DNA from: Patescibacteria group bacterium
Lineage (GTDB): Bacteria > Patescibacteriota > Patescibacteriia > JAHIZJ01
NCBI GenBank assembly: GCA_041650335.1
Contig: JBAZLK010000002.1
Span: 124,070 to 188,069 of the forward strand
Direction: 5' to 3'
DNA length: 64,000 bases
Each line of letters starts with the position of its first letter. Position 1 is the first letter of the stretch. The notes under the pieces were generated by a model. It had not been told where the DNA came from. It did no database searches and saw only the letters and a list, made by a program, of their open reading frames with translations. Position numbers and translations under genes: made by a program. Below are positions 6,864 through 63,996 of the stretch, piece by piece.

Positions 6864-6893
6864 GTAACCTTTTTACGGTTCAGTCTGTGATAT

Positions 6894-6926: not shown

Positions 6927-6934
6927 ATACCATC

Positions 6935-45800: not shown

Positions 45801-48572
45801 TTATTCTACCGGCAGAGTAAATATAAACGTGCTCCCCTTGCCCAAACCTTCGCTCTCGACCCAGATCTGTCCGCCGTGGGCGTCGACGATGCGCTTGGCA
45901 ATATAGAGACCGAGACCGGACCCGTCCGGCTGGACTTGGGCGATGCCCTCCCCGCGGACAAACTTCGTGAACAGCCGCTTGGCGTCATCCGGCGGGATAC
46001 CGCGGCCCGTGTCCTTCACGGAAACGCTGATATTGCCGTTGATCTTCTGAACCGAAACCGTGACGCTGCCCTGCGGTGTGTATTTTATCGCGTTATCGAC
46101 GAGATTCAAAATGACGTCTTTCAATTTATCCGAATCAACCATCAGGGCGGGCAGTTTTTTGGCCGGCTTTTTGTATTCCAGCTTGAGGCCTTTTTCCTCA
46201 GCCACCTTGATGATTTCGATCAATTCGGTCTGGATCAGTTCTTCGATTTGCGCCGGTTTCTTATCGAGTACGAATTTACCCGCCTCGATCTTCGTAATAT
46301 TGAGGAATAAATTTACCATCCGGACCATGCGCTTGCTCGCATCCAGCACTTGTTTCAAAATATTCAGTTTTTCTTCGTCAATCTTTCCGAAATCGCCGTC
46401 CACCAGCATGGACAGCCAGCCCTGGATGCCGGTCAGCGGGGTGCGCAATTGGTGCGAGGCGATGGAGATAAACTCGTTCTTCGCCTCGTCGAGCTGTTTC
46501 AAATGATCGTTCGCCTTGGCCAGCTCGGTATTCGTCAGCCGTAGCTCCTCGACCAACTTCAGATTCCTAGTGACAATACCCATCTGATCGGCCAGCGACT
46601 CCATCATCTGGATCTCGTCCTCAGATACTTCTTTCTTGGATTTTTGGATGACAAACACGATCGATCCGATGATCTCCTTTTCCGAGAAAATCGGCGCGGC
46701 CACGATCGTCTTCGCGCCCACGAGCTTTTGCATAGCATAGCAGATCGGCTTTGGAATCGGCGGGGACAGGAAATCAGATAGCGATTCGCTGATCTGGATA
46801 TTTCCCGTGCGGATTGCCTCCGTCGCCAGATCCTTATCCGCCATCGTGCCGCTGTATTGTTCGAGCTGTTTGGGCAGGAGTTTGACCGCGGCTTGAGTGA
46901 TTTTTGTCATCGTGATGGCCACCGGATGCGTTTTTTCACCTTCTCCGCGTAAAATAATAACCCCCCCGATGTACCCCAGCTCATTGGCGATGCCGTCAAC
47001 GATCGCCTGGGTAACCTTCTTGAAGTCGAGCGACCGAGTGATGATATTGCCGATACTCTGGAGAGCGTTCAAGTAGACATTCCGGTTCTTTAGCTCCACG
47101 TTGGCCATCTGAAGATCGGCCGTGGCGTGCTCGACCTCAACCTTCAGCTTTTCACTGAATGATTTTACCTCGTCATAGAGCCGCGACTTCTCGATCGCCG
47201 ACCCCATGAGCGGGCTCAAGACTTCGAGCAGTTTCAGGTCGTTTCCGCTATAGACATCGCCGGATCGCTTCTGGCCCAGCACATAGAGGCCAGTCACCTC
47301 GCCCTCGAGCATGATCGGCGCGATCACTGCCGCGCCCGTGGCTTTTACCTCAGCTAGTGATTTCTCGAGCTGTTTGCGCTCGCGTTCATCGGCCGTATCG
47401 GAGATTTTTCGCTCAAGCTCTTCGAGGACAACCACTTTTTCGGTTTTTTGAACGTATTTGGCGACCGAGCCATTCGCATCGACGCGCGTATTATTACCGT
47501 TACCGTTGTTATTTCTACGCTTGCTGTATGACTGTTTGTTTTTCGTGAGCAATAATATGTCCGCATATTTGATTTTCAGAATACTGGCGAGCTTCCACTC
47601 CACTGACGACAGCAGATCATCGAGCTCGATCTTCACACTGACCATTTCGGTCAGTATCTGGGTGGCTTCGGTATAGTCCACCTCGCCTTTGAAGAATATT
47701 GCATCGGTAATTTTTGCCAGTAAACGCTTCAACGGATCAAAACCGAAAACTATTACAAGCGAGACAAGGATAGTCGCGAGAAACCCCGACCCGCCAAGCT
47801 CTTGGATAAAAAGACCGGTCAGAAACGTAGCTGAAGTGAAAGCAAACGTAGTAAAAAGAATGAGAAAGAAATAGATAATGGAGCGAGATATAACCACCCT
47901 AATATCAAACAATCTGTGTTTGACGATTGCATAGGCGGTAATAATCGCATAAATGAAAACAAAATAATTACCAACAGGATAAATATTTAATCTAAAATCT
48001 AGTAAAAAATTTGTAGATCCACCAACAAATCCAATCAATGACGCGACAAACATGTATAATAACTGTTGTGATCTGAGACCAAGAGCTTTTTTATATTCAA
48101 TATATATATTTCTGATACTCCAAAAAACGACTGCAACAAAATATATAAGAAATGTTGGGTATATGCTTCCAGTTTTTACCGGCCAATAGCCAAAATATGT
48201 CCTGGGACTCACTTGCTCGATAAACAATTTAGAAAAAACGAGAATCGAAAATATTACCGAAATGACATACAAAAAAATAGTAATATACAAGTATTTCTTT
48301 TTTGTCCTGCCGGTTAATACAACGCTATAACGAAAAAATACGGCGGGTAATAACGCAGTACCAATATACAACAACCTTTGCCAAATCAATGCCTGATCAG
48401 AGTTATTAGCAATGACGGTACCGAATAAACCTATAGTCCATATTGAAGTTACACAACTGACAAGAAACCATATTTGATTTAATTCTTTCTTCCTATTTCC
48501 AAATAAAACAAACAGTCCTAGTGCAACAGTTAATATCGCGGTTAAAAGACAGGTATACGCAAAAGTGTTCAT
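45801..48572 (-). CDS. sensor histidine kinase with N-terminal 7TM sensor module and GAF domains
   Basis: 923 aa. The first ~300 aa are multi-TM. H-box FISIASHQLRTPLTGIQGWLSML, N/G boxes (NLVDNAIKYT, DTGRGI, GSGLGLYI). Confidence 0.8.
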   Translation of the reverse strand: MNTFAYTCLLTAILTVALGLFVLFGNRKKELNQIWFLVSCVTSIWTIGLFGTVIANNSDQALIWQRLLYIGTALLPAVFFRYSVVLTGRTKKKYLYITIFLYVISVIFSILVFSKLFIEQVSPRTYFGYWPVKTGSIYPTFLIYFVAVVFWSIRNIYIEYKKALGLRSQQLLYMFVASLIGFVGGSTNFLLDFRLNIYPVGNYFVFIYAIITAYAIVKHRLFDIRVVISRSIIYFFLILFTTFAFTSATFLTGLFIQELGGSGFLATILVSLVIVFGFDPLKRLLAKITDAIFFKGEVDYTEATQILTEMVSVKIELDDLLSSVEWKLASILKIKYADILLLTKNKQSYSKRRNNNGNGNNTRVDANGSVAKYVQKTEKVVVLEELERKISDTADERERKQLEKSLAEVKATGAAVIAPIMLEGEVTGLYVLGQKRSGDVYSGNDLKLLEVLSPLMGSAIEKSRLYDEVKSFSEKLKVEVEHATADLQMANVELKNRNVYLNALQSIGNIITRSLDFKKVTQAIVDGIANELGYIGGVIILRGEGEKTHPVAITMTKITQAAVKLLPKQLEQYSGTMADKDLATEAIRTGNIQISESLSDFLSPPIPKPICYAMQKLVGAKTIVAAPIFSEKEIIGSIVFVIQKSKKEVSEDEIQMMESLADQMGIVTRNLKLVEELRLTNTELAKANDHLKQLDEAKNEFISIASHQLRTPLTGIQGWLSMLVDGDFGKIDEEKLNILKQVLDASKRMVRMVNLFLNITKIEAGKFVLDKKPAQIEELIQTELIEIIKVAEEKGLKLEYKKPAKKLPALMVDSDKLKDVILNLVDNAIKYTPQGSVTVSVQKINGNISVSVKDTGRGIPPDDAKRLFTKFVRGEGIAQVQPDGSGLGLYIAKRIVDAHGGQIWVESEGLGKGSTFIFTLPVE

Positions 48573-49216
48573 TGTATTGTATTCTGTTTTTCCACTAAAT
48601 TGACAATCTTTTTGGCTATTTGTCGTTTTCCTTTAATAAAAATGATATTATTGGCATGGTCTAATATAAATGCCTCGTGAACCCCTCTAACTCTTTTATA
48701 TTCGTTTGCCACCATGAAATCGGCGCGTGACTCCGCCATACTTTTGGACGCGATCTGAATTAATTGTTTTGATGTTTTGTTTACTTCCAACTTGAACTTA
48801 ACAAGAATGGTACTGGGGGTAATTTTTTTAATATAATTTACTATTTTTTTTGTTGGCTTCAGTTTCAAAAATATCGTTTTCTTGCCACTTTTTATTTTCC
48901 CACTATATTTTTTTGATAACTGATAATCGGATATTGCGGCGGAATGAAATATTGCGTCGTATTTATTTTCTTTAATTTCTTTAATGAATATCCGAAACAA
49001 TTCATCATAATAGTGAAATTTTATTAATCTAACTTTAATAGATCTAAGTTTATGATCACAAACTCTTCCTGGTCCTAACATCAGTGTAACCTTGTGTCCT
49101 CTTCTGCTAGCGATTTTTGCTATTTCAAAACCAAGATTACCTGCAAAAACATTCGTAATTACTCTTACTTTATCGATGGGAACCCAAACTGGACCGGCGG
49201 TCACTAATACTCTCAT
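48569..49216 (-). CDS. coaB: phosphopantothenate--cysteine ligase-like (CoaB domain)
   Basis: MRVLVTAGPVWVPIDKVRVITNVFAGNLGFEIAKIASRRGHKVTL matches the CoaB pattern VLVTSGGT.EPID.VRFI.N.SSG. Confidence 0.55.
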   Translation of the reverse strand: MRVLVTAGPVWVPIDKVRVITNVFAGNLGFEIAKIASRRGHKVTLMLGPGRVCDHKLRSIKVRLIKFHYYDELFRIFIKEIKENKYDAIFHSAAISDYQLSKKYSGKIKSGKKTIFLKLKPTKKIVNYIKKITPSTILVKFKLEVNKTSKQLIQIASKSMAESRADFMVANEYKRVRGVHEAFILDHANNIIFIKGKRQIAKKIVNLVEKQNTIQ

Positions 49217-50012
49217 TTTTTACTATATAATTATTTTTTACTTTTTTATACCATTTCCATGGAGTCCTAAACAAATTGTATTTTACGTATAGTGATAAAT
49301 GATTTTGTTTAAACCATTTGATAAACTCTTTATCAATATCTTCTCTACTTCTTATTTGATGTCCCCTTTTCCTGAGAAAATCGATATAGATATTACCTAT
49401 TGGAAAGATAAAATGTTTAGTAATATATCTCGGTTTTTTCTCTAGTTGATAATCAATATTATCCAAAGGCTCACTCATGCTAATAATGTGCTTTTCATTT
49501 ATTGGATGCACTGCATCATGTTCCCCATCCCATATAATCAAATCTGTGAGATTATCAATATGTTTTGTCTTCAATGAAAGTTCTGTATCCGTTGATGGGT
49601 CGCATTTTATCCAGCGATTATCTATATATACAAAGCAAACTATATGCACCGATGAACTACTAATACTTTCCTTGATAAAAGAAGGAAGAATATGCCCAAA
49701 AGATTCCCCGCCAATTACCTTATATATACAATATCCGCTCGGTATACCTGCAGCTCTAAAAAGCGCAACAAGTAAATTTGTACTAGTGGTACACATGCCC
49801 GTCTGACTCTCCATAGTTTCAGAAGCTCTCTTACTCCATGCGCCAACCCTGTATTTAATATTATCCCTTACATATTCAAAAAGTGCTATCGCAAGATCCT
49901 TATCATTCTGATTGACCTTTTTATAACTTTTAACAAAATCTATAATATTGTGATTATCATAATCACAATATTTTGTAACAGCTAAATACTTTTGCTTATT
50001 TATTTTTTCCAT
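49170..50012 (-). CDS. transglutaminase-like cysteine protease superfamily protein
   Basis: Core GMCTTSTNLLVALFRAAGIPSGY (catalytic Cys), then His/Asp region (SFGHIL...VYIDNRWIKCDPS). Overlaps coaB by 47 nt and coaC by 13 nt. Confidence 0.55.
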   Translation of the reverse strand: MEKINKQKYLAVTKYCDYDNHNIIDFVKSYKKVNQNDKDLAIALFEYVRDNIKYRVGAWSKRASETMESQTGMCTTSTNLLVALFRAAGIPSGYCIYKVIGGESFGHILPSFIKESISSSSVHIVCFVYIDNRWIKCDPSTDTELSLKTKHIDNLTDLIIWDGEHDAVHPINEKHIISMSEPLDNIDYQLEKKPRYITKHFIFPIGNIYIDFLRKRGHQIRSREDIDKEFIKWFKQNHLSLYVKYNLFRTPWKWYKKVKNNYIVKNESISDRRSSLGSHR

Positions 50013-50578
50013 TGCTTTAATAATTTTTCGATGTTATTTTGAAGGACATCATTTCCAATTAGCGCTCCTTCACCCTCATAACCGCATGCTAATTTTCCTT
50101 TGATCGGTCCAACGATGCTATATTTATCCAAGTTGCCTATTTTAATATTTCTCAATTTGCTAATATTTGACTGGATTATTTCATTTTCCCACATATGACA
50201 ATTCATAGCGGGCGCAATAAGTACTGGCGTTTTTTTCGGGAGTGCGCACATTACTGTTGTAAGTAAATTATCAGCTATTCCACATGATAATTTACTTATT
50301 GTATTTGCAGTCGCCGGTGCTAATACAAAAATGTCGCACCAATCAGCTAAATGTATGTGCTCAACAACGGTTTTATCGTGCGTTTCAAAGGTATCTAAAT
50401 ATACTTGCGAATTAGACAATGTCTGTATAGTTACCAGTGAAATCAATTGCGTGGCAGCCGCCGACATAATAACTTTAACAGTTGCCCCTGAAGCCTTTAG
50501 TCTATTTATTAAACTACACATTCTATAAGCACCAATACATCCAGTAATTCCTAATAATATCTTTTTGTTCTTTAACAT
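50000..50578 (-). CDS. coaC: phosphopantothenoylcysteine decarboxylase-like flavoprotein (CoaC domain)
   Basis: KKILLGITGCIGAYRMCSLINRLKASGATVKVIMS... and PAMNCHMWEN match the HFCD flavoprotein family. Confidence 0.6.
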   Translation of the reverse strand: MLKNKKILLGITGCIGAYRMCSLINRLKASGATVKVIMSAAATQLISLVTIQTLSNSQVYLDTFETHDKTVVEHIHLADWCDIFVLAPATANTISKLSCGIADNLLTTVMCALPKKTPVLIAPAMNCHMWENEIIQSNISKLRNIKIGNLDKYSIVGPIKGKLACGYEGEGALIGNDVLQNNIEKLLKQWKK

Positions 50579-52048: not shown

Positions 52049-53509
52049 TTAAACTTTTACCCCAATCCGCTCAAGCGCGTTTTTATAAAGTATCACATTT
52101 TCTAATGCATAGGCCGCCTCCTGCGCGACATTCTGTAAATATCTGACGTCTTCTGTTGTATACGGTTCGTTCGATGTCTTACTGCCAAGAAGAACAAGCG
52201 CAGAAAGTCCGTGGCGCGTAGCTAGCGGCAATACCGCTTCGGTTTTCAGATTGTCCATTTCCTTTTCGCACTGCTCGAGCCGTCGCTGTTCAAGACCGAA
52301 TGCTTCCTGAAATAGATACGGGATTTCTTCACGGATTAGCATTTTCATGGAATCTTTCAAAAAACTCGGTAATGCTTCTTCTGCGCGAATACTGATATTG
52401 CCGTCTAATGAGTCATATGTTCCCTGGCGCTTGTTTACTATTAAACAAGTTATTCGATTCACGTTCACAACCTTTAATATTTCACCCGATAGCTCTCGGC
52501 AAAACTCTTCCAAGTCCACTAAACCGATCACGCGCTGCCGAACATCTTCAATCATCTGTTTCATATTCGGCTGGCGCGAAAAAAACAAACGGTTAATTAT
52601 TCGTATCAACCATTTACGAAATGGGATAAAGGTTACGGCAATAACAAGCACTGAAGCAAAATTCACAAATGCACGGTTGAATGCGTACTTCTGGACTAAA
52701 TAATCATTCGCAAGCAGAACTAAATAACCATAGACGATTAGTAATAATATAAGAACCAGCGTATGGGCCGCGCCCTTTTTCATTACTATCCTTACGTCCA
52801 TAAAACGATACCGTAGTATGGCATACGCAATAAGCCACGTAAACACAGCTAAACCAATCAAACTTAGAGGATATAATTTATTGTAACCAAGCGATGGCAG
52901 TAGTAAATTAAATAGTAAAGAAAATGTCGCAACGCAAATAAACGCAAAGATAATATAACGTAGTTGAATCTTTGTAACTTTTGATGTAGTTGATTTGAAA
53001 ATATTGAATAATTTTTTCAATCCAAAAAATGCATATATTAATAAATAAATAATATATGCAGGATACAATTGACTAATACTCGGACGATAACCGTAATTTT
53101 CAATATATTCGACATCAGAGATGTTATACCTTGTCGGAACTATTGCTACAATGGCTATGGATGGTAAAAAAAGTAGCAAAATTTGCCACCACGAAAATGG
53201 CGTCTTTTTTTTATAGAGAGTATACGCAAAAAGTAAAAATAATGTCGGGGAAAACGCCGGTCCGAGAAAAGTCAGTCTCGCCCATAAAAGAGCGGCTTCT
53301 TTGCCACCAACAAGATCGGACATAATGTTCGCAAACAACCACACAGAGAGACTTAGCACTAACGATCCAAAGAAGATCAGATTTGGTCTTTTTTTGCTCT
53401 TAATAAATACGGTAATGGATATTACCAGGAGCGCAAAAAAACAAATTACTGAGGTAACTTCAATAATTTGGATCTCTAGACTATGATATATTCCAGGATT
53501 AATCTCCAT
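52049..53509 (-). CDS. membrane sensor with N-terminal 7TM module and C-terminal GAF-like domain (no kinase domain)
   Basis: The first ~300 aa are multi-TM and resemble the N-terminus of the 45801..48572 kinase. The C-terminus is GAF-like (ALVLLGSKTSNEPYTTEDVRYLQNVAQEAAYALENVILY). Confidence 0.5.
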   Translation of the reverse strand: MEINPGIYHSLEIQIIEVTSVICFFALLVISITVFIKSKKRPNLIFFGSLVLSLSVWLFANIMSDLVGGKEAALLWARLTFLGPAFSPTLFLLFAYTLYKKKTPFSWWQILLLFLPSIAIVAIVPTRYNISDVEYIENYGYRPSISQLYPAYIIYLLIYAFFGLKKLFNIFKSTTSKVTKIQLRYIIFAFICVATFSLLFNLLLPSLGYNKLYPLSLIGLAVFTWLIAYAILRYRFMDVRIVMKKGAAHTLVLILLLIVYGYLVLLANDYLVQKYAFNRAFVNFASVLVIAVTFIPFRKWLIRIINRLFFSRQPNMKQMIEDVRQRVIGLVDLEEFCRELSGEILKVVNVNRITCLIVNKRQGTYDSLDGNISIRAEEALPSFLKDSMKMLIREEIPYLFQEAFGLEQRRLEQCEKEMDNLKTEAVLPLATRHGLSALVLLGSKTSNEPYTTEDVRYLQNVAQEAAYALENVILYKNALERIGVKV

Positions 53510-54172: not shown

Positions 54173-54736
54173 TTAGATGCCATATATTGCCCTGATGCCG
54201 GAAATATCATCCGAATGCAACGTGCGCTTATATGTCTCACCGGGTGCCCCGCTTCCATACATTGTTTTCCAATAATCTCCGCCGCTGTACAGATCATTGA
54301 GCATAAGCCAGTGTCCAAATTCATGCGCCATGACATTTTCAACGTCATATTTGTTCGGGTCCCCGTTCACGTCCCAAGAAAAGCGCGAGTTTATGTATGT
54401 ATCACGATCAGTGATGCGATTATTGTTCCATCCTTCTCGCACATACGTTATGGCAAGTGCATGTGGGTCAGACAAATACTGGAGACGCACTTCATGCCCT
54501 TGCGAGCCAGCAATAAACCGATACTTTGCGCCCGCCTGATTCCACGATGACATAGCGTGGGATATGGCCGGTACCCAGGCGGGCAGGATACTACTGTGCA
54601 TGTAGACCGATACCCGGGTCGGATTGCCATAGTCCCAGTGATGGCCGGAATTGTAGTAGGCTTGGGCGTTAGGCGCACTAATGCCGGCCATAGCCGCAAC
54701 AAAGAACGCGACTAATGCTAAAAACTTTTTTCTCAT
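54173..54736 (-). CDS. secreted zinc metalloprotease (HExxH)
   Basis: Start at MRKKFLALVAFFVAAMAGISAPNAQA (signal peptide). Motif VMAHEFGHWLMLND. Confidence 0.55.
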   Translation of the reverse strand: MRKKFLALVAFFVAAMAGISAPNAQAYYNSGHHWDYGNPTRVSVYMHSSILPAWVPAISHAMSSWNQAGAKYRFIAGSQGHEVRLQYLSDPHALAITYVREGWNNNRITDRDTYINSRFSWDVNGDPNKYDVENVMAHEFGHWLMLNDLYSGGDYWKTMYGSGAPGETYKRTLHSDDISGIRAIYGI

Positions 54737-54806
54737 CTTGTACCCTTTTCCACCCGTCATATTAATTATAGCTATGTCAATGGATAATTGGAAATAAAGC
54801 AAAAAA

Positions 54807-54882
54807 CGAGCCCGAAAGCCCGTCTCTTTCTAACACTAGAATACTCTCTACGTATATTATGTCAACTACCTGTTATCCACCC
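54807..54882 (-). repeat. conserved promoter element, copy D (upstream of secreted metalloprotease gene)
   Basis: rc GGGTGGATAAcaggtagTTGACA-16 nt-TATTCT-agtgtt-AGAAAGAGACGGGCTTTCGGGCTCG. Confidence 0.65.
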
Positions 54883-55520
54883 GCCCCCGCAACTTGATAT
54901 AATGCTTCCAACTCTACTTTTGTCCACCGGATACCGTACACAGCTCGAAATATTCGTGGAAATATTTCGGGTGAATTTGTCTGGCCAAGCTTTCGCAGCA
55001 ACGTAAGCATTTTTTTCTCGCCGTATTTCCGGATCAGCGCGTTGACCCAGAAATACCCGACCGGATATGCCATGACAGAGAAGTTACCCATGGGTCTTGT
55101 TACTGAGAGCGCCAGCGCCAATGGCGGCGTGCGTTTTTTCTGACCAGCCAACCAGCAAGCCAAGCCTTCGTTCAGCCATTTCGGCACATTCCAACCCGCA
55201 ACACTGCGGATGTACAGATGCGCGTGTTCGTGGCGCAGGGTGGTCCAGAATTCAGATCGGCGCCTATGGTTTGACTCGCTGACGTATTTTTCCGGGCTCA
55301 GAATATAAATTACCCGTTCTCTCGTCCAGCCGACTGACCAATCCTCAGTTTTTCTTCCCCAAAGAGCGTCGATCTGACGTCGCGAGGTGAGAAGAACGAC
55401 CAACGGTTCAGAAAGCTTGTATCCGAAGAAACGGTCAAGTTCTTTCGTTTGCATTTTTATCTGGCGTCGCAGTTTCGGCAGTTGGCGAACCCGACTTATT
55501 TCCACACATAGGTTTTTCAT
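54873..55520 (-). CDS. hypothetical protein with HExxH motif (putative metal-dependent hydrolase)
   Basis: TTLRHEHAHLYIRS; 215 aa. Confidence 0.35.
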   Translation of the reverse strand: MKNLCVEISRVRQLPKLRRQIKMQTKELDRFFGYKLSEPLVVLLTSRRQIDALWGRKTEDWSVGWTRERVIYILSPEKYVSESNHRRRSEFWTTLRHEHAHLYIRSVAGWNVPKWLNEGLACWLAGQKKRTPPLALALSVTRPMGNFSVMAYPVGYFWVNALIRKYGEKKMLTLLRKLGQTNSPEIFPRIFRAVYGIRWTKVELEALYQVAGAGG

Positions 55521-55534
55521 TGTATCGTTTTTTA

Positions 55535-56122
55535 CTATTTCTCAACCTTATGAGCGATCATTCTGACCACATGATGCTGATGGGGTTCTTCCTTGCCTGG
55601 GTGTCCCGGATCGTCAATCACCGCTTCGCGATAAAAATCAACATCAAAATCGGAAAACAGATCGCGTAGCTGCCCTTTTTGGAAATAACAGGCGTCCGGT
55701 CGTTTTTGATAGGACGGCTCATCAACCGTGAAACCAGATACAATGATATACCCGCCTGGATGGAGGGCGTTTTTTACTCGCTGGATTAAGTCGAGCGCTT
55801 TTGGTTTTTCTATAAACTGGAGGACATTGAAAAGCTGGATTATGGAGTATCGATCAGGCTCTATCTCGAAATCCTCTGCCCGACCCTGGATGATTTTGAT
55901 CGGCAGTTTGTTAAAGTCAGGTGTTTTTTTCATTTCAGCAATTTCGTCTGGCGACCTTTCCACCGCCACAACGCGCCAGCCGTTTTGCGCCATGAACAAA
56001 CTGTCACGCCCTTGACCGGCGCCAAAATCAAGGAAGGAATGTGCACGATCAGCGTTTTGCCAAATCCTCTGCAATAATTTGTTGGGCATACTGATTGGGT
56101 TTTGTGTAATCGACACGGGCAT
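55535..56122 (-). CDS. class I SAM-dependent methyltransferase (TehB-like)
   Basis: LDFGAGQGRDSLFMAQNGWRVVAVERSPDEI (motif I and post-I). Confidence 0.65.
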   Translation of the reverse strand: MPVSITQNPISMPNKLLQRIWQNADRAHSFLDFGAGQGRDSLFMAQNGWRVVAVERSPDEIAEMKKTPDFNKLPIKIIQGRAEDFEIEPDRYSIIQLFNVLQFIEKPKALDLIQRVKNALHPGGYIIVSGFTVDEPSYQKRPDACYFQKGQLRDLFSDFDVDFYREAVIDDPGHPGKEEPHQHHVVRMIAHKVEK

Positions 56123-56445
56123 AATTCGTTAGATAATAGCAATATATAGTATAAATATGGAAGCGCCTTCGTACAAATATACGAACGTCATCTATTGGCT
56201 CATGCACAGCGATAAAAACTTTTTCTTGATTGTCGCGTTTAATTCCTTGCTAAGTTCGCGTTGAAACGCTAGTTCAACTGGTTCAGACGTTTGTATATGT
56301 CCTCCCGGTAAAAAATTTGAATCAGCTCCGCGTATATACAATTACCAATAATTTTTTTATGAATCATTCCTCCTGGACTACCAGCAACCTCGCATCACGT
56401 ACAGATTTATTAGCTATAATATTTTGATATTAGTGAGGCGTTTTA

Positions 56446-56865
56446 TCATGATCTTAAATGTTTTATTACGGTTCTCTTGTATCCACTCTCCATCTTAAGC
56501 ATCCTTACTCCAGCTGCAGTCACCCAACGCCATTTGTCATGTTCCTCACTCAGATAGAATCGGCTCTTCGATATCCGGCATTCAAAAACCACAACGCAAA
56601 AATGATACCTGGCAATATCATGGAATTTCGTCATGATATTAAACACTGATATTGGTCGGCCAATTTCTACCCGGGTAATTCCAAGTTCCTCTTTTAATTC
56701 TCGGCACAGGACCGCCTGCGGCGTTTCTCCAAATTCCATCTTTCCTCCGGGCAATTCCCAGGAACCGCCGGGCGTATGTACAAATAATACTTTATTATCG
56801 CGTAGGATCAACGCTTTTATTGTAATGCGTAATCGCCGTTCCATTTTTGGATAGTAACCCTTCAT
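56446..56865 (-). CDS. NUDIX hydrolase
   Basis: Nudix box GGKMEFGETPQAVLCRELKEELGI. Confidence 0.6.
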   Translation of the reverse strand: MKGYYPKMERRLRITIKALILRDNKVLFVHTPGGSWELPGGKMEFGETPQAVLCRELKEELGITRVEIGRPISVFNIMTKFHDIARYHFCVVVFECRISKSRFYLSEEHDKWRWVTAAGVRMLKMESGYKRTVIKHLRS

Positions 56866-57437
56866 AACTTTTTATTATTCAATTTATCAATAAACATTGC
56901 GAATGTATTTTCTTTAAGAGAAATATGACGGCCGTACCATCGTTCCACTAATCCACTGAATTCTATTATTCGAGTAAACCCGGAATTTCGGTCGTGGTTT
57001 ATCTGCTTTCGATACCACGACTTACCTTCTGTCTCGCTGATATGAATAGCATTTAAACAACGGACAAAGTATTCCTCAAGATTGTCACGGAATGTTTGCC
57101 CTCGATAGTTATCGGGAAGTCCAATTTCACATTCCTGGACAAAATGACTGACCGACATTTTTGTCTTTATCAGTGAATGCAGGGCTTCGTGTCGCACGGT
57201 ATTCCAGGGGAAGCTATGATCTGGGTGGGGATGTAAACGAATAATATGTTTTACTCCGTCATGTGATACTCGACCGTTCCCCAAGGGCAGATGCTCGTCA
57301 ATTTTTATTTCCAAAATCAACGAACAATCATCTTCGTTCCACCGTAATAGGTCAACTGCCTCAAGGACGGTTGATCTGCACTTCTCCATAAACCCATCTA
57401 TTTTCGATAATTTTTTGGCTAGTTTAATATCGATCAT
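56862..57437 (-). CDS. hypothetical HExxH protein (putative metallopeptidase) downstream of the radical SAM gene
   Basis: RHEALHSLI motif; 191 aa; AT-rich compared with the flanking rSAM gene. Confidence 0.4.
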   Translation of the reverse strand: MIDIKLAKKLSKIDGFMEKCRSTVLEAVDLLRWNEDDCSLILEIKIDEHLPLGNGRVSHDGVKHIIRLHPHPDHSFPWNTVRHEALHSLIKTKMSVSHFVQECEIGLPDNYRGQTFRDNLEEYFVRCLNAIHISETEGKSWYRKQINHDRNSGFTRIIEFSGLVERWYGRHISLKENTFAMFIDKLNNKKL

Positions 57438-57516
57438 TATTTTCTAGATTACGCCACAAGGTGCAAAAAGTAAAATCCCTTCGATCTCGGCATCAAAGGG
57501 GTATAGCAACATCCAG

Positions 57517-58785
57517 TCACTTGATTGGCTCCGGTGGAAGACCGAGCTCCATCCGGAGAATTGCCCGAGTGAAAAAGCGTATCCCCTCACAACGGTGGCT
57601 AACCCGCCTAGCGAAACCAGCCCCGTACGCCGACGCTCGCACATGGCAACAGTCGCCTTTGCAATTGCTCATGGCATAACAGTCATGACATTGGGGCACC
57701 GAATCCGCTGTATAGCCGGCCAATTGTTGATACGATTTCCCGGATATTTCGGGACCCGTGCCATGGGGCGTTATTTTGCCATAATGGAAGCATGCCGCTA
57801 GCGGATCGCGGGAATCGCTGACTCGCGTACAGGCCGTTACGTTGCCCTCCGGATCGATGCCGAAGATTCTGCCGTTGACCCCGCAGAAGCTGAGCCGGCA
57901 TACGTGCGACTTGAAGGTTGCCAATGAGGAACGCAGCTGCAAGTTATTTGCTTTCGCAATCGCCAGCAAGCCTACATACTGCTGAGCAAACACTCGAAGA
58001 TCCGGCGGTTGCGCATTGGTGTCGATGCACCTTCCGGTATACTCCAGCGGCTCGATGCCGATGACCACATTCGGCCAGCGACGGTGCAAAAACAGCACAT
58101 TGTCTTCGAGATCGTTGACGCTCTCTGCCGAAACAGTCATCCGAAAGCCTATACCGATGGTACCAACACCACTTAGCGCGTCGATGTTGGCCGCCACGAT
58201 ATTGAACGACGGTCGTCCGTCGGCCAGCGGCCTCTGTTTGTTCTGTATCATCGGAGGTCCGTCGATTGAGATCGAGATGTTCGTGAAGTTGTCAACGATG
58301 AAGCGCCGAAGCTTGGAGGAAAAGCAGCCGTTGCTGACAATGGCGAGTTTGCACCGGAGCCCCGTTTCGGACTCCTTCTGCCTGCAGTAGGCCACGATTT
58401 TACGCACCAGCCTCAAAGACAACAGCGGTTCCCCGCCGCCGGTCAGCGTAACGTCGAAGTGTGATAGCCCCAACTCTTTCGCATCTTTGGCCACCTGGTC
58501 GATAGCCTGGCAGGCTATGGGAAATGGCATTTCCCGTCGCTGTTGCGTACCGGAATTCGCGTGGCAGTAAATGCAGCGCAAATTACAGAAGTTGTTGAGC
58601 ACCAGATCACAACGGGGAAACCTCCCGTCCGGCGCGCGTTCAGTGGAATGCGTCTCAACTGTTGCGTCAAACAGGTCGGGTACTTGGATGCTCTGCGGAA
58701 CAAGCCGGACCGTGCGAAGCTGGGGAATGTACACGATCTTGTTCCCGCTTTCAACCGGAATCTGAAAAGCGCGAACCGCAGTCAT
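57517..58785 (-). CDS. radical SAM / SPASM-domain peptide-modifying enzyme
   Basis: CNLRCIYCH (CxxxCxxC). C-terminal Cys cluster CHDCYAMSNCKGDCCH fits the SPASM Cx2Cx5Cx3C pattern, plus additional upstream Cys. GGAGG SD. Confidence 0.8.
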   Translation of the reverse strand: MTAVRAFQIPVESGNKIVYIPQLRTVRLVPQSIQVPDLFDATVETHSTERAPDGRFPRCDLVLNNFCNLRCIYCHANSGTQQRREMPFPIACQAIDQVAKDAKELGLSHFDVTLTGGGEPLLSLRLVRKIVAYCRQKESETGLRCKLAIVSNGCFSSKLRRFIVDNFTNISISIDGPPMIQNKQRPLADGRPSFNIVAANIDALSGVGTIGIGFRMTVSAESVNDLEDNVLFLHRRWPNVVIGIEPLEYTGRCIDTNAQPPDLRVFAQQYVGLLAIAKANNLQLRSSLATFKSHVCRLSFCGVNGRIFGIDPEGNVTACTRVSDSRDPLAACFHYGKITPHGTGPEISGKSYQQLAGYTADSVPQCHDCYAMSNCKGDCCHVRASAYGAGFARRVSHRCEGIRFFTRAILRMELGLPPEPIK

Positions 58786-58812
58786 TGGTCACCTCCTGAG
58801 AAAGGATTGAGT

Positions 58813-58836
58813 GGGGCCGGCGGTGAAACCGGCCCC
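58813..58836 (-). promoter_or_regulatory. intergenic hairpin between precursor peptide and radical SAM gene (putative attenuator/partial terminator)
   Basis: GGGGCCGGcggtgaaaCCGGCCCC, perfect 8-bp GC stem, 30 nt after the peptide stop. Confidence 0.5.
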
Positions 58837-58853
58837 CTACCGCGTTGACTCGA

Positions 58854-59018
58854 TCAGTCGCTCGAGCAGATGTAGTCGTCGCAGCAGTTGTCGCAGCAGG
58901 CTTGCCCGTTCTGCGAATATTGCCGATCGCTCAGCGTTGCTTCTCGCACGCTGACCTGATCCAGCTCCGACAGCGTCGCAATTGAACGGGTTTCCGTGCC
59001 ATGGCTCGACGCATTCAT
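58854..59018 (-). CDS. candidate RiPP precursor peptide (54 aa, Cys/Asp-rich C-terminus), absent from the ORF track
   Basis: MNASSHGTETRSIATLSELDQVSVREATLSDRQYSQNGQACCDNCCDDYICSSD. SD GGAGAGGAGGG lies 8 nt before ATG. Directly upstream of the rSAM/SPASM gene. Confidence 0.55.
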   Translation of the reverse strand: MNASSHGTETRSIATLSELDQVSVREATLSDRQYSQNGQACCDNCCDDYICSSD

Positions 59019-59178
59019 TTAGCTACCCTCCTCTCCGCCCATAGGAGTCAGGTTGATTAGCCAGAGGTTCCGGCATTCGGAATGTGGCAAAACCGCCAGA
59101 GACCGATGGGTCTTTTGTTGTAAAAGATCGATAACACAAAAAGAGCCGGTTTTTCTGCCTGCCTTCGGAAGGCAAGAA

Positions 59179-59247
59179 AGAAAGCCCGTCTCTTTCTGCC
59201 TGCATGATACACCATCTAGAGAACCGGTCAAGATCGTTTTATCCACT
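59179..59247 (-). repeat. conserved promoter element, copy E (upstream of the precursor peptide)
   Basis: rc GTGGATAAaacgatcTTGACC-16 nt-TATCAT-gcaggc-AGAAAGAGACGGGCTTTC. Confidence 0.65.
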
Positions 59248-59346
59248 CAGCTAGATATAAATTAGATAATTGCCTGTTCGTTTGAAATAAAAATGACCGA
59301 ACGGGAGGTCCGGTCAAGAAGTAGCTCGGTTGCCAGCAATGTACAT

Positions 59347-60513
59347 TTAGGGTGGGCCGATGATGGCGAGCTCCCGTTCCAGCTCGCAGTCAAAACTCCA
59401 GGGAGAGTAGGTCGAATGAACCAGGTTGTTCGTGGCAGAGATAGCGTACCGCCGGCGCGCTTCCTTCTTCCAGCAGAGCGCGCGATAGTATCCGCCCCGG
59501 CCGGCGACCAGCACCGCGAGCGATTCGCCGCGTGCCAGCAATGCGACCGCTTCTTCGTACCAGTCATCAGCGCGCGATGCCTGGTACCACGTCTGCGCTT
59601 CGGCCTGAGTAAACCGGTGCGGCCAGGTCCGGACGATGTTCAACCCGTACCGATTAAGCAGTTTGAGCAATTCGGCTTCAAGTCCCCGGCGGCGCGCTTC
59701 CGGCTTCAGCAGTATGAGCGAGCGCTCGATGCGGTCCGGCTGGAGCGAGCCTTTTGGGCACAGCGTCAGCCAGCGGTAATAGCCCGGTTCATTGATGAAC
59801 GTGCGGCTCAGCGTGAGATCGCCGGGCGTATTGATGTTGCAGCACAGGTCGTCGCCGACCAGGCCCAGGATCCGGAAGTTCCGCATTAGCAGCAGCCGAA
59901 CCAGGTAGTCCCAGCCGAGCGAATAGGCCTGAAACTGATAGTTCTGCCAGTTACGAAAATCCTCTACCCAGCCACCGCTCAACCGCTCGAGGCTGGATGT
60001 CCGGAACGCCCACAGCACCAGGAGCGTCGGTATCTCGTGCCCTGGCACTTCTTCAAGTTCACACACCCAGCCGTTTTCAACCCGGTACCGCCAGTAGATC
60101 CAGTCAGAGGTGATGAACGGCCGGCAGACCGTGGTGATGAGCACGGCGCCATCCGCCGAGGACTCCTGTTCCAGCGCCTGAAGCAAGCGGTCAGCGCTGG
60201 CTGGATGCCAGAGCGTATCCCCGTTCACTCCGACAATGATGTCAGGCTGATATTGCCGGGCGGCGTTGAAGAAACAGGTCGTCAGCGGTTCGACACACCC
60301 GGCCGCGACGTTGACGCGTCCGGCGGTATGCTCGATCAGCGCCTCCTTCCCGTCGTCGACACCCATTACGATCGAATTGAAACCGGTCGTCAGGCCAGCC
60401 TCGATTATCCGATCAATAATCGGCCGCCCCTCAACTTCAACCAGCGATTTCGGCCCGGCACATCCGAGTCGGCGTCCCTGGCCGCCGGCGGCGATGAAGA
60501 GTTGCGTTTTCAT
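59347..60513 (-). CDS. fusion protein: N-terminal sugar-phosphate nucleotidyltransferase-like domain plus C-terminal nucleoside-diphosphate-kinase-like domain
   Basis: N-terminus AAGGQGRRLGCAGPKSLV (NTP-transferase G-x-G-x-R-x-n-K). C-terminus RSLILLKPEARRRGLEAELLKLLNRYGLNIV ... NNLVHSTYS resembles the NDK motifs (IKPD..., N.IHGSDS). Confidence 0.5.
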   Translation of the reverse strand: MKTQLFIAAGGQGRRLGCAGPKSLVEVEGRPIIDRIIEAGLTTGFNSIVMGVDDGKEALIEHTAGRVNVAAGCVEPLTTCFFNAARQYQPDIIVGVNGDTLWHPASADRLLQALEQESSADGAVLITTVCRPFITSDWIYWRYRVENGWVCELEEVPGHEIPTLLVLWAFRTSSLERLSGGWVEDFRNWQNYQFQAYSLGWDYLVRLLLMRNFRILGLVGDDLCCNINTPGDLTLSRTFINEPGYYRWLTLCPKGSLQPDRIERSLILLKPEARRRGLEAELLKLLNRYGLNIVRTWPHRFTQAEAQTWYQASRADDWYEEAVALLARGESLAVLVAGRGGYYRALCWKKEARRRYAISATNNLVHSTYSPWSFDCELERELAIIGPP

Positions 60514-61478
60514 ACACCGATCTCCTTCTCATGCCAGCGCCAGAAAGGTTCTGAGACGCGGTAGCCGCCTTTGGCGAACGAAAGCCGCAGTTTGGCGAAC
60601 CATGGCCCATCTAGACTAATCCCGAGATCGACCAGCTGACCCCCGCTTTCCTGGGTATCGGCCCGGCCTTCAATGAGGTCAGCCGCCGCGGAACAGCCGT
60701 GGCGAGCCAGGTACTCCAGCACAAACAGGTAGTACTGCGGAACTTGCCGATGGCCCAAGAAACGATAGGCATCGATGAGACGCAGCTCGTGTTCGGACAG
60801 CGGGCGTTTCGCCCGGTAGCCGTCAAGAAAGTACTGGAGACCGTCGAAATAATGGCGGTAACTCCAGCCGCCGTCCGTGACTAACAGGATCATGAAGGAC
60901 AGCGAGGCGCCGATGTCATAGACCGGCCAGCATACGCCGGAGTGCTCCCAGTCATAGGTGATCATCGGCTCGGCACTGAACAAGTTCTGGATTGTGTAAT
61001 CGCCGTGGATATAGACCGGCGCCAGACCATTCAAAGCAAGCCGGGCAGCCGACATGGTAGCGGCGGCTGCAGCCAGGGCCCCTTCGGGCAGATTGCTGCG
61101 CCGCAAGACATCCGTCTGCAGATCCTGAAACCGGCGGTTAATGAGCGCCGCGGTCGGCTCGCCATCGCACGTAAGGCCATGGATGTCGGCCAGCGTAGAT
61201 CCAATCGCCTGGAACGCCGACGGCTGCGGATTGCCCCACAACACCTGGTCAACGCGCGGGGCATAGATGCGCTCCATCACTGTCCAGCCGCCCCAGCGCC
61301 CGATGCCAGACTTCAGCACCCGCGGCGTACAGATACCTCCGTTCCCGGCCAAGGTAAGACCGCGCATTTCCGCCGCGTGCCGTTCCGGCCACATCCCCTT
61401 TTTCGTGAAGGTCGTTTCCGTCTGCTCATACTCTTTGCGCATTCCACCCAGCTTCAAATAAGCGTCCATAACAAACAC
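60510..61478 (-). CDS. aminoglycoside-phosphotransferase/choline-kinase-like small-molecule kinase
   Basis: YIHGDYTIQNL (Brenner HGD..N catalytic loop) and DWEHSG (D-x-E). Confidence 0.6.
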   Translation of the reverse strand: MFVMDAYLKLGGMRKEYEQTETTFTKKGMWPERHAAEMRGLTLAGNGGICTPRVLKSGIGRWGGWTVMERIYAPRVDQVLWGNPQPSAFQAIGSTLADIHGLTCDGEPTAALINRRFQDLQTDVLRRSNLPEGALAAAAATMSAARLALNGLAPVYIHGDYTIQNLFSAEPMITYDWEHSGVCWPVYDIGASLSFMILLVTDGGWSYRHYFDGLQYFLDGYRAKRPLSEHELRLIDAYRFLGHRQVPQYYLFVLEYLARHGCSAAADLIEGRADTQESGGQLVDLGISLDGPWFAKLRLSFAKGGYRVSEPFWRWHEKEIGV

Positions 61479-61571
61479 CCCCTGCTCGCTGTCTGAAACA
61501 GCGCGTTGTCAAAGATCATCGGGCCGGGGCTCGCCGGAACCCTCCGATCAACCGTCTAGCAACCGTGTCAA

Positions 61572-62234
61572 CTAAGTAATATCCCCGGCTTGTGCCTCCA
61601 TCCTAATCTGACGGAGCAAATTGTCAAGCCTGGCATATCGCTTCTTAGCGATGGCTTTTATTATTGGAAAATAGAACTGGCGCAGGTAATTTTTCGCGCT
61701 AACCCGGGCTCCTTCGGTCACCCAATACTCGTACAGCCGGTCAAGCCCTTTTTTATCGTAATGGGCATAGGTGATGTGACGCCAAATCTGCAGACAACCG
61801 TAATTATCCAAACGATCCGCATCCTTGACCATTTTCGCCTCCACGCTGAGCGCCTTTTTCCCGTGTTGCTGGTCTATTATGGACTGGACTTTCTTTATCT
61901 TGTCCCGGCCCAGTCCTGACCGGCCGATATATTTTACCACCAGCCGTGACCCGATTTCTGCGTGCCGCCGGTCAGCGTCAGAGTCATAGCGCAGCTCGCC
62001 TTTCGCATTCAACGACTTTATTTTGCCAACATCTGAAAATAAGGCGGCTACAAGCAAAACATCCTTGTCGATGTTCATTTTTTTGAAAAATGGCAGAGTC
62101 AGGAATTTCTCGCAGTATCGCATAACGCGCACTCCGTGATCGTATCGAAATTCGTACCCGCCGCCCGCCTCGTACGTATTCCGGAAGATGGCGTGATACT
62201 TTTGCAACAAACCGGCCCTTAAATTTTTTTGCAT
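61572..62234 (-). CDS. HD-domain phosphohydrolase
   Basis: LVAALFSDVGK, RHAEIGS, KDADRLD match HD motifs. Confidence 0.55.
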   Translation of the reverse strand: MQKNLRAGLLQKYHAIFRNTYEAGGGYEFRYDHGVRVMRYCEKFLTLPFFKKMNIDKDVLLVAALFSDVGKIKSLNAKGELRYDSDADRRHAEIGSRLVVKYIGRSGLGRDKIKKVQSIIDQQHGKKALSVEAKMVKDADRLDNYGCLQIWRHITYAHYDKKGLDRLYEYWVTEGARVSAKNYLRQFYFPIIKAIAKKRYARLDNLLRQIRMEAQAGDIT

Positions 62235-63331
62235 AATTTTTTATATATTTGTAAAAACGGCTCGAGACAGCGCGGCCAATGGTAATACCGTTCAACAAAC
62301 TTCCGGCCGCGCACCGTCATTGTACTATAGCTCCCGTAATTTTGCATAATGCCATGTATTCGGTCAGCGTACGCCGTGATATCATCCTCAATTATACAGG
62401 CATCGCGTACCGACGGATGCAGTCCTCGTACGCTCACGCTCGTGGCCACCAGTGGTAGTCCGGACGCCAGATAGTCAAGCACTTTTAAACTTGTCCCGGA
62501 CGCTTCCAGAATCGGCGCCACGGCAATGTCAGAGGCGAGTAACTCACGGCTGAGGTTCTTCGTGCCTCCGAAAAATACCGTTCCCGGGCCGCTGTATTTA
62601 TTTCTCAACGCCTCGGACACCGGGCCCATGATATTGATGCAATATCGGCGATCAAGCTTTTTCAGCTTAGGCAGAACGATCGTGGCCAGACGCCGGATCG
62701 CGTTTTCATTCGGCGGATAATAACCATGGCCCAAAAAAGCGATCCGAAATCTCTTCCGCTTCCGTATCTTGAACTGGATCGCGTTCGCGTCAATTGCCCC
62801 GCGATAGACGGTGATAGCGTGCCGCGAGCTATTCAGGCCAGCCAGCTGGCGCCTGTCTCGATTCGACCGGCAGAGCGTGTGGTTGGCCACGGTTATGGCG
62901 CGCGCTTGCTGTTTTTTCATAAACCGGACCATTTGGCTGTTCCGGTCGAGGCCGCCATAGAGAGTATGGTCAACATTGATGGCTTCATAAATAATTTTCA
63001 AACCGTATTTTTTTAAGACTGGCCCGAGGGCATTTATTTCCTCGGCGTTGCACATGTGAAGGCAATCAATATCGAATGCCGAGCACGCATAGGCCAAAGC
63101 CCGGGCTTTGTCGGGACGCGCTGTCGCCGGCACAAAAATCGTGGTAAACGGCTGTTTTGAGTACAATTTAGGGTCATCCCAGCCGCGGTAATTTATAATC
63201 AAATAAGGACGCACGCGACCGGTAGCGGCGAGATATTTCATGAGGTTGTAAATAGAGTAGAAAACGCCGTTCCGGATCGGTAAAAACGACCCATCCACAT
63301 AAAAGCCTACGCGGTAAATTTTTTTATTCAT
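62219..63331 (-). CDS. GT4-like glycosyltransferase
   Basis: C-terminal EASGTSLKVLDYLASGLPLVAT. Confidence 0.65.
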   Translation of the reverse strand: MNKKIYRVGFYVDGSFLPIRNGVFYSIYNLMKYLAATGRVRPYLIINYRGWDDPKLYSKQPFTTIFVPATARPDKARALAYACSAFDIDCLHMCNAEEINALGPVLKKYGLKIIYEAINVDHTLYGGLDRNSQMVRFMKKQQARAITVANHTLCRSNRDRRQLAGLNSSRHAITVYRGAIDANAIQFKIRKRKRFRIAFLGHGYYPPNENAIRRLATIVLPKLKKLDRRYCINIMGPVSEALRNKYSGPGTVFFGGTKNLSRELLASDIAVAPILEASGTSLKVLDYLASGLPLVATSVSVRGLHPSVRDACIIEDDITAYADRIHGIMQNYGSYSTMTVRGRKFVERYYHWPRCLEPFLQIYKKLCKKI

Positions 63332-63996
63332 AGCTTGTTTCGGATCATGGCTTCAAGCGCTTCCATTTTCTCGGTGCCGGGCAGCGTTATTATTTCGGTT
63401 TGCGGCTCGAGTTTTGGAAATACCTCTACGTAATATTGGCGGAAGCGGCGCAAGAAATTTACATTCAGCCACATGTTCGGGCTGGTCCGCGCCGGCACGC
63501 GTTCTTTCCGTCGGCTAGAAACGTTTACAGAAAGGTCGATATAGAACACCCGCCACGGTTTGATTATCAATTTTTTTACCAGCGCTCGGCGGTACCAGCG
63601 CAGCGCCGTCTGATACATCGTCGCCGACTTCACCCGATCATAAGCCCAATAGAATGCCAGCGTGCTGGGATAATAACGGTCGAGCACAAATTCTTTCTTC
63701 GGCGAGCGCATGATTGCCCGAGTCTTCAGCTCTTCGCTCCGAAAATAATAAGCCTGGCCCATCGCCTGGTCATTGGCCGGCTCAGTCGGTAATATTTGCG
63801 GAACCCGACCCATGCGTTTGTTGCCGCGCGTTAATAAAATAGCCAGGCTTGTCTTTCCGGCGCCCGGCAGACCCTCGAGCGCGTAGAGTTTTTTATCAAA
63901 AACCGAGACCGTTCCAGAATTTGCCGCGACAAAGCCGTAGAGCGCGTCATTGGGCAAATGATATATTTTTTTCGGCTTAAAGCCTCGCCGCAGCAC
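63328..63996 (-). CDS. P-loop kinase (deoxynucleoside/thymidylate-kinase-like); 5' end may lie beyond window
   Basis: Walker A GLPGAGKTS; 222 aa. The listed first codon is GTG at the window edge. Confidence 0.5.
   Translation of the reverse strand: MLRRGFKPKKIYHLPNDALYGFVAANSGTVSVFDKKLYALEGLPGAGKTSLAILLTRGNKRMGRVPQILPTEPANDQAMGQAYYFRSEELKTRAIMRSPKKEFVLDRYYPSTLAFYWAYDRVKSATMYQTALRWYRRALVKKLIIKPWRVFYIDLSVNVSSRRKERVPARTSPNMWLNVNFLRRFRQYYVEVFPKLEPQTEIITLPGTEKMEALEAMIRNKL

Follow-up and report, generated by a model that had tools for sequence, protein, structure and literature searches.

The window analysed here, a stretch of 64,000 nucleotides from a Patescibacteria group bacterium, carries on its minus strand three consecutive genes, encoding a short Cys/Asp-rich peptide, a radical S-adenosylmethionine (SAM)/SPASM enzyme and a protein with an HExxH motif (Table 1). 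The peptide is specified by an open reading frame (ORF) of 54 codons at 58854..59018, which starts with ATG and ends with TGA (58854-58856), and the ORF listing of the window gives its product as MNASSHGTETRSIATLSELDQVSVREATLSDRQYSQNGQACCDNCCDDYICSSD. A Shine-Dalgarno (SD) sequence, GGAGAGGAGGG, lies at 59026-59036 on the minus strand with the ATG 7 nt further on, and exactly 68 nt separate the peptide stop codon from the radical SAM ATG (58785). The ORF, its strong SD and its distance from the enzyme had been put forward in a first-pass annotation of this DNA, and both the ORF listing and the sequence agree with it. That annotation had also called the ORF unannotated, which holds for its own ORF track, where the peptide is missing because its 54 residues fall below the minimum of 60, but not for GenBank, where the identical 54-residue protein is already entered as 'hypothetical protein WC497_02605 [Patescibacteria group bacterium]'. 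Its count of five Cys and five Asp in the last 16 residues, QACCDNCCDDYICSSD, is correct for Cys, whereas the Asp residues number four. The database names of the enzyme and of the downstream HExxH protein derive from the same Patescibacteria metagenome-assembled genome (MAG) as the peptide. Searches with the peptide found no family match in Pfam or NCBIfam (the latter at E <= 0.1). As 124 ORFs of at least 30 codons overlap the region from 52 to 64 kb, a 54-codon ORF is unremarkable by its length alone and the case rests on comparative evidence.

The comparison comprises 13 distinct loci, i.e. the window and 12 others, of which seven were reached via homologues of the enzyme and five via the peptide motif, the enzymes of the other loci being 49-76% identical to that of the window. 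A small ORF is located just upstream of the enzyme gene in every traced locus (13/13, including the window), and the gene order peptide, radical SAM enzyme, HExxH protein (~190 residues) is the same in the loci found through the enzyme and in those found through the motif. The C-termini of the peptides read CCD(N/Q)CCDDY(I/V)C followed by SSD, SSE, RD or KD and the stop codon. For the motif-first search this core was back-translated into a degenerate DNA pattern, with which GTDB (one genome per species) and the JGI metagenomes were scanned. Six matches were obtained in these genome and metagenome collections, one on a contig already found and five in new loci that all contain peptide, enzyme and third gene. 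The first-pass annotation had suggested looking for small ORFs ending in CC-D-x-CC-DD beside radical SAM/SPASM genes, and each of the six matches indeed lies in front of an enzyme homologue. Within the window the pattern occurs once, compared with 0 occurrences expected from 100 shuffles even when two mismatches were allowed. The order of ORF, enzyme and HExxH gene, being kept in 12 further loci, supports the proposal that the ORF encodes a precursor peptide.

Alignment of the 13 family members revealed L19, L29, C41, C42, D43, C45, C46, D47, D48, Y49 and C51 to be invariant, position 44 to be N or Q, and the last residue to be Asp in 12 members and Glu in one; from C41 to C51 of the core, nine of the 11 residues are Cys or Asp. 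Pro32 is present in 12 of the 13 members and only the window copy has Arg instead (codon 32, 58923-58925). This leader position, near the probable boundary of leader and core, is otherwise invariant.

Substitutions were analysed codon by codon in eight loci, taking 15 codons as the core and summing the proportions of synonymous and nonsynonymous differences (pS and pN) over pairs. Codon positions 1, 2 and 3 vary in 4, 2 and 14 of the 15 core columns, respectively, and since variation thus concentrates at the third position, conservation acts at the protein level. In the core pS amounts to 0.92 and pN to 0.089 (ratio ~10), as compared to 0.72 and 0.42 in the leader, the codons of invariant Cys and Asp residues show synonymous TGC/TGT and GAC/GAT exchanges, and pairwise dN/dS, a check proposed in the first-pass annotation, ranges from 0.09 to 0.5 where dS is unsaturated. 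A census of stop codons across the final 44 codons of 12 loci found none in the peptide frame of any locus, but some in 9-12 loci for each of the five remaining frames, ruling out that another frame or the opposite strand is the coding one. The frame is therefore kept in homologous loci, and conservation merely of nucleotides, as in an untranslated region (UTR), is not what the core substitutions show. We conclude that the 54-codon ORF is a real protein gene under strong purifying selection.

An exhaustive phmmer search over 1.84 billion cluster representatives identified ~5 clusters of the peptide family; a repetitive protein of 1290 residues (P0036), which matched the peptide with E 1e-7, was rejected as a compositional false positive. 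The family is genuinely rare and patchy and found mainly in Patescibacteria; the sources that carry a name comprise Patescibacteria, Candidatus Uhrbacteria and a MAG with the label Gammaproteobacteria. Gene callers passed over the precursor in five of the seven homologous loci that came with gene calls: it is uncalled in L001, L002, L003 and L007, and in L005 the called start of the enzyme (6001-7407, 468 residues) is over-extended across the peptide ORF at 5886-6077. In L004 the peptide is called (6001-6243), but with 26 additional N-terminal residues, the call running through the SD. A practical lesson is that gene calling can miss such precursors.

The neighbour of the ORF, taken for a radical SAM gene in the first-pass annotation, encodes a protein with the full set of radical SAM and SPASM cysteines. 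Pfam matches comprise Radical_SAM (E 1.2e-11) and Fer4_12, and no match to the Pfam SPASM model was reported, though the SPASM Cys pattern is complete. In an alignment of 28 homologues the CX3CX2C motif (C67-x3-C71-x2-C74) is invariant, as are the SPASM residues C301-x12-G314-x4-C319, C366-x2-C369-x5-C375-x3-C379 and C399, down to 20% identity. Judged by these residues the enzyme is of the bona fide radical SAM/SPASM peptide maturase type. Among the NCBIfam models the PapB ranthipeptide maturase (NF047865) scored best (126.5 bits, cutoff 340), followed by the nif11-peptide maturase model rSAM_nif11 (111 bits, below cutoff and restricted to the N-terminal half), QhpD (93.2 bits, cutoff 453, near full length), the SCIFF maturase (TIGR03974, 83.4 bits, cutoff 425) and the mycofactocin maturase (54 bits). 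As the PapB score is far below its cutoff, homology does not permit a transfer of function. CteB is the closest solved structure, both by sequence (phmmer E 7e-16) and by a Foldseek search with a structural model of predicted local distance difference test (pLDDT) 90 (E 2e-19, template modelling (TM) score 0.72), and other fold neighbours of the model are anSME, the cyclophane-forming ChlB and PqqE. Residues 1-41, a segment conserved within the clade, are modelled as five β-strands without helices (pLDDT ~90), and this all-β N-terminal domain may constitute a non-canonical leader-binding module.

The third gene is present in all 13 loci. Its product has the invariant elements R-H-E-x-x-H, K91, N119, E121, E122 and Y123, but reached the threshold of no Pfam or NCBIfam family, with weak matches to DUF4932 and M78 only; a profile search of the PDB resulted in noise only, and a word-indexed protein search yielded three proteins. 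According to the model the HExxH motif is located on a helix, the EE pair on the helix that follows, and the fold is that of a zincin, i.e. the features that define a gluzincin (clan MA(E)), with E as ligand on the next helix and a HExxH-to-Glu spacing of ~33 residues that includes a low-confidence insert. The protein is thus predicted to fold like a gluzincin metallopeptidase. M1/thermolysin gluzincins and the α-ketoglutarate (αKG)-dependent HExxH oxygenases ChlH and PflC share the HExxH helix, the acidic residue on the next helix and the zincin fold, but differ from the window protein, which is a stand-alone domain of 190 residues with its ~33-residue spacing and below all family thresholds.

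Upstream of the peptide, the preceding gene is followed by a terminator-like hairpin and T-run (59316-59294). A promoter-like site follows (Table 1), and at the equivalent position L004 has TTGACG-16-TATACT, the sole such site upstream of its peptide. Directly past the -10 box lies an 18-nt block, AGAAAGAGACGGGCTTTC, that is identical in L004 (18/18 nt), and the leaders of the window and of L004 share in addition an 89-nt block at 73% identity. The window leader folds with a minimum free energy of -65.9 kcal/mol (z -3.2, none of 200 shuffles being equally stable) and that of L004 (5893-6078) is also structured (z -3.1). Rfam gave no match over 56-60 kb at E <= 1, hence no known riboswitch or leader, and the ~180-nt leader may be a regulatory element. 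In the other loci an SD is situated 5-9 nt ahead of the inferred peptide start.

A second ORF of this region, 59019..59246 (75 residues, GTG start), is best read as a by-product and not as a gene. It spans the promoter-like site (59231-59204), its GTG lying upstream of the -35 box, it is in frame with the peptide with only a TAA between them, and it translates the SD. Moreover, it resembles only the closest locus, L004, where two frames match equally well, indicating conservation of a leader at the DNA level. The earlier judgement that this ORF is probably spurious is borne out by these features.

The spacer between peptide and enzyme is always 57-68 nt long and in nearly every locus contains a GC-rich hairpin of 9-14 bp, the sequence of which differs from locus to locus; z is <= -3 in nine of 11 loci and -0.5 in L006. 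The window hairpin lacks a subsequent T-run and is unsupported as a canonical intrinsic terminator, and the hairpin of L004 was scored terminator-like by the scan. A hairpin after the precursor gene is a common means of setting the precursor:enzyme ratio in operons for peptides that are ribosomally synthesised and post-translationally modified (RiPPs), and the spacer hairpin would have a comparable role in transcript levels here. Another terminator-like hairpin with a T-rich tail is found at 57477-57500 on the minus strand, in the gap from the radical SAM stop (57517) to the HExxH start (57437), so that the HExxH gene may be expressed at a level other than that of the enzyme.

Table 1. Features of the cassette and its surroundings; positions refer to the window unless a locus is named.
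Feature	Position	Strand	Basis or remark
Promoter-like site, TTGACC-16 nt-TATCAT	59204..59231	-	Best sigma-70-like match in 56400-59700, 10/12
Structured 5' leader (~180 nt) of the peptide mRNA, including SD GGAGAGGAGGG	59019..59200	-	Folding versus shuffles
Peptide leader part, residues 1-40, with T-L-x-E-L…S…L-x-x-P motif	58899..59018	-	13-member alignment
Core peptide CCDNCCDDYICSSD, residues 41-54; TGA stop at 58854-58856	58857..58898	-	Alignment, codon analysis, motif scan
GC-rich hairpin GGGGCCGGU…GCCGGCCCC in the 68-nt peptide/enzyme spacer	58813..58836	-	Perfect 9-bp GC stem
Radical SAM/SPASM peptide maturase, 422 residues; SD AGGAGG at 58792-58797	57517..58785	-	Pfam, NCBIfam, alignment, model
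HExxH protein, 191 residues, unclassified family; putative leader peptidase	56862..57437	-	
HisKA_7TM proteins, window	45801-48572, 50641-51324, 52049-53509	-	Only 7TM homologues in 64 kb
HisKA_7TM proteins, other loci	L001 8419-11787; L002 2547-5339; L007 310-978; L008 598-1281		

The peptide very probably serves as the precursor for an uncharacterised natural product, a modified peptide. We propose that it forms a three-gene RiPP cassette with its neighbours, in which peptide A would receive Cys-Asp thioethers from the radical SAM/SPASM maturase B before the HExxH protein removes the leader, and we consider this the probable course of events, if with appreciable doubt. In the proposed pathway the peptide would be transcribed from its own promoter, and the hairpin past its stop codon would probably stabilise or partly terminate the transcript, leaving more message for the precursor than for the enzyme. 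The hydrophilic leader of ~40 residues with its T-L-x-E-L…S…L-x-x-P motif would dock on the enzyme, possibly at the conserved all-β N-terminal mini-domain, with the peptide serving as the enzyme's substrate. The enzyme would then cleave SAM reductively, and the resulting 5'-deoxyadenosyl radical would take hydrogen from the acceptors within the core of 14 residues, CCD(N/Q)CCDDY(I/V)C…D/E, so that the sulfurs of the five Cys could form intramolecular thioether bridges. Most likely, the acceptors would be the four invariant acidic residues through their β-carbons, and perhaps also Asn/Gln. The chemistry would be of the ranthipeptide type as in PapB and QhpD, but with a tighter spacing, C-x0-2-D instead of C-x3-D. 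Removal of the leader by the HExxH gluzincin-like protein would be the last step.

Several observations underlie the assignment of Cys-Asp links, with the five Cys as presumptive donors and the invariant acidic residues as presumptive acceptors. The invariant core consists mostly of Cys and Asp, and its D/E and N/Q exchanges retain a carboxylate or amide. PapB and QhpD, the two characterised formers of Cys-Asp/Glu thioethers, are among the top three family matches of the enzyme. PapB joins Cys to either Asp Cβ or Glu Cγ, accepting C-Xn-D with n = 0-6 (PMC9413430), and also connects Cys with C-terminal residues (PMC12373016), and NxxcB uses Asn as acceptor in NxxcA (PMC8326336). Finally, a distant enzyme relative (L015, 34% identity) is also flanked by Cys/Asp-rich ORFs, two divergently transcribed ones on the minus strand (3435-3677, 80 residues, and 3718-3948, 76 residues). 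Both are very rich in Cys and Asp and share an LEGL-x-G-x-VDF leader motif, and one ends in CDDYDCSSD, like the window peptide, which suggests a wider superfamily of Cys/Asp-rich precursors. The more distant relatives L014 and L016 were discarded as guides to the chemistry as they have no comparable upstream peptide; L014 possesses a different Cys-rich ORF (114 residues) downstream.

With CX3CX2C, the SPASM seven-Cys pattern and an adjacent, co-inherited precursor that combines a variable leader with a conserved Cys-rich core, the cassette has hallmarks of a radical SAM/SPASM-matured RiPP. By sequence it resembles a ranthipeptide/sactipeptide system and lies outside the PapB, SCIFF and QhpD families according to curated thresholds. 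The PapA/PapB system (freyrasin, Paenibacillus polymyxa) likewise combines a small precursor, a Cys/Asp-rich C-terminal core and an adjoining radical SAM/SPASM maturase, but the window core has no C-x3-D repeat and instead shows two CC-acid-acid quartets plus a terminal C-x1-2-D/E, the window enzyme is not a member of NF047865 (126.5 versus 340), the cassette includes a dedicated HExxH partner, and the hosts are Patescibacteria, not Firmicutes. SCIFF/CteB (thermocellin, with a thioether from Cys to Thr Cγ) shares the short Cys-rich precursor followed by a SPASM enzyme, and CteB is the closest structure. However, the maturase remains below the SCIFF cutoff (83.4 versus 425), the window peptide matches no SCIFF model (TIGR03973), and the ~100 residues that precede CX3CX2C in CteB, estimated from alignment offsets, contrast with 60 residues here, modelled with the all-β mini-domain. 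QhpD/QhpC, acting in quinohemoprotein amine dehydrogenase maturation, involves the same donor and acceptor types in Cys-Asp and Cys-Glu thioethers (PMC8326336), but the window enzyme is below the QhpD cutoff, no dehydrogenase subunit genes are near the cassette, and the window-type substrate is a free peptide of 46-60 residues with a leader. Neither Pfam nor NCBIfam has an entry for the precursor family, the enzyme clade or the HExxH family.

A number of points weigh against the proposed pathway, which is read from the genes. No Cys of the core has Asp/Glu at i+4, the spacings being C-x0, x1 or x2-D; PapB is inefficient on C-x0-D (PMC9413430), and for the adjacent CC pairs the rings would have to be very small or interlocked. 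Five Cys face four acidic residues, and the invariant Tyr49 has no role in a Cys-Asp model. The enzyme reaches only about a third of the PapB cutoff, Pfam and NCBIfam scans of the cassette proteins detected no PqqD-like RiPP recognition element (RRE), and in the loci compared no transporter or exporter is conserved in the cassette. The spacer hairpin of the window itself is not significant against shuffles (z -1.3), and the HExxH protein could be an αKG/Fe oxygenase instead of a peptidase (PMC12636437).

These points give some room to other explanations. The peptide could be the precursor of the adjoining enzyme and nevertheless undergo another chemistry, such as Cα thioethers of the sactipeptide type, Cys-Tyr or other C-C/C-S links involving Tyr49, an anSME-like conversion of Cys to formylglycine, or epimerisation. 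SPASM enzymes catalyse many reactions, the fold neighbours include anSME and ChlB besides CteB, all NCBIfam matches are far under their cutoffs, Tyr49 is invariant but unexplained by the Cys-Asp model, and five Cys face four acidic residues; yet the almost exclusive conservation of Cys and Asp, the carboxylate- or amide-preserving exchanges and the rank of PapB and QhpD as the highest-scoring characterised families argue against it, and we regard another chemistry as unlikely. We attach about the same low likelihood to the third gene encoding an αKG/Fe(II)-dependent HExxH oxygenase like ChlH, BpmH and PflC, which would hydroxylate the β-carbon of Asp (or Asn/Gln) or cleave the backbone oxidatively. 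The protein is not a member of the αKG-dependent HExxH β-hydroxylase family model (IPR026337). This alternative concerns the HExxH step only and would leave the rest of the RiPP pathway as it is.

Improbable, in our view, is a metal-binding or cofactor-type peptide in place of a secreted natural product, i.e. a thiol/carboxylate chelator or the precursor of a small redox cofactor that is processed from the peptide's C-terminus, like pyrroloquinoline quinone (PQQ) or mycofactocin. PQQ is made from Glu plus Tyr, and the invariant Tyr of the core stands beside acidic residues; nine of the 11 residues from C41 to C51 are potential metal ligands, a C-terminal core with a SPASM partner is also the arrangement of PqqE, itself among the fold matches, and MftC, and a conserved exporter is missing. 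However, neither a dehydrogenase nor any other cofactor-using neighbour is conserved, the mycofactocin maturase score is well under those of PapB, QhpD and SCIFF, and the rare and patchy family fits an accessory trait better. That the region is not translated at all, and that the radical SAM gene instead has a conserved 5' UTR or regulatory RNA here with the ORF as a by-product, is effectively refuted: the peptide belongs to no Pfam or NCBIfam family, was often left uncalled and is flanked by structured RNA in leader and spacer, but codon-periodic substitutions with a core pS/pN of ~10, synonymous exchanges at invariant residues, a frame that alone stays open in 12/12 loci and the lack of an Rfam match contradict it. 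A role as LanD-type Cys decarboxylase was considered for the CoaC-like flavoprotein (50000..50578) and rejected: it has a CoaB-type (DFP) gene nearby (48569..49216), it lies 6 kb from the cassette without being conserved alongside it, and Cys is not the C-terminal residue of the peptide.

Returning to the Cys-Asp pathway, the core can, as a matter of speculation, be divided into five C-x-(D/N/Q) units, C41/D43, C42/N44, C45/D47, C46/D48 and C51/terminal D/E, giving five donors and five acceptors. A bolder version, which we put forward only tentatively and think rather unlikely, envisages a new, Patescibacteria-specific RiPP type, in which a 14-residue core carries up to five short interlocked Cys-x-(Asp/Asn/Gln) rings (two CC-acid-acid quartets and a C-terminal ring), recognition relies on a non-RRE β-domain, and the product possibly signals to neighbouring HisKA_7TM kinases. 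An interlocked-ring topology is not known from PapB-type ranthipeptides.

Sensor proteins with a HisKA_7TM domain (PF16927), alone or combined with GAF/HisKA/HATPase domains, cluster ~1.5-10 kb from the cassette, both in the window and in no fewer than four of the other loci (Table 1). The enzymes of two of these loci are only 49% identical to that of the window. L004 has a GAF-HisKA kinase nearby (1954-4770), for which no 7TM region is recorded. The HisKA_7TM proteins could be receptors for the peptide, or could reflect mere shared synteny.

Beyond the three genes of the cassette no flanking gene is conserved in all loci. The flanks in the window are unusual. The upstream one (59347-63996, minus strand), with a nucleotide-metabolism gene set, comprises a nucleotidyltransferase (NTP-transferase)/nucleoside diphosphate kinase (NDK) fusion, an APH-type kinase, an HD phosphohydrolase, a GT4 glycosyltransferase and a dNK-like ORF, and the downstream flank (54173-56865, minus strand) a NUDIX gene with a 4-nt overlap with the HExxH gene, a TehB-like methyltransferase, a Peptidase_MA_2 protein and a matrixin-like protein. 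L001 and L008 likewise encode a Peptidase_MA_2 protein near the cassette, and in L004 a NUDIX gene lies directly upstream of the peptide. Between 48001 and 52000 the GC content drops to 0.33, compared with 0.49 for the window, and this segment holds a split CoaB/CoaC-like pair (DFP 48569-49216, Flavoprotein 50000-50578), a transglutaminase-core ORF between the two and a protein that consists of the 7TM region only. In L005 (2474-4781) there is a second radical SAM gene (359 residues), preceded by ORFs of 62 and 38 codons and followed by a methyltransferase, and L008 (5781-6806) has a second radical SAM match (24% identical); both may represent further RiPP cassettes. In L006 (255-4963) the cassette is located directly downstream of a large serine recombinase, a helix-turn-helix (HTH) protein and two RuvC-like genes, an arrangement suggestive of a mobile element. 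A link to phages was dropped despite these recombinase and RuvC genes, as the core pattern had 0 matches in the viral contig collection.

Patescibacteria, also known as the Candidate Phyla Radiation (CPR), are tiny, uncultured bacteria and have minimal genomes with few or no reported biosynthetic gene clusters, the roles of which are unknown (PMC9765116, PMC11613949). Strong purifying selection on the cassette in several lineages of these organisms suggests that its product matters to their way of life, be it in competition, host interaction or signalling. With nine of the 11 central residues being Cys or Asp, a spacing unlike the C-x3-D rule and an enzyme without a recognisable RRE, the core is an extreme substrate, and the system could extend our knowledge of radical SAM enzymes that form thioethers, a group under development as catalysts for peptide stapling (PMC9413430, PMC12373016). 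If the tentative link to the HisKA_7TM kinases were true, this would be the first peptide-signalling system proposed for ultra-small episymbiotic bacteria.

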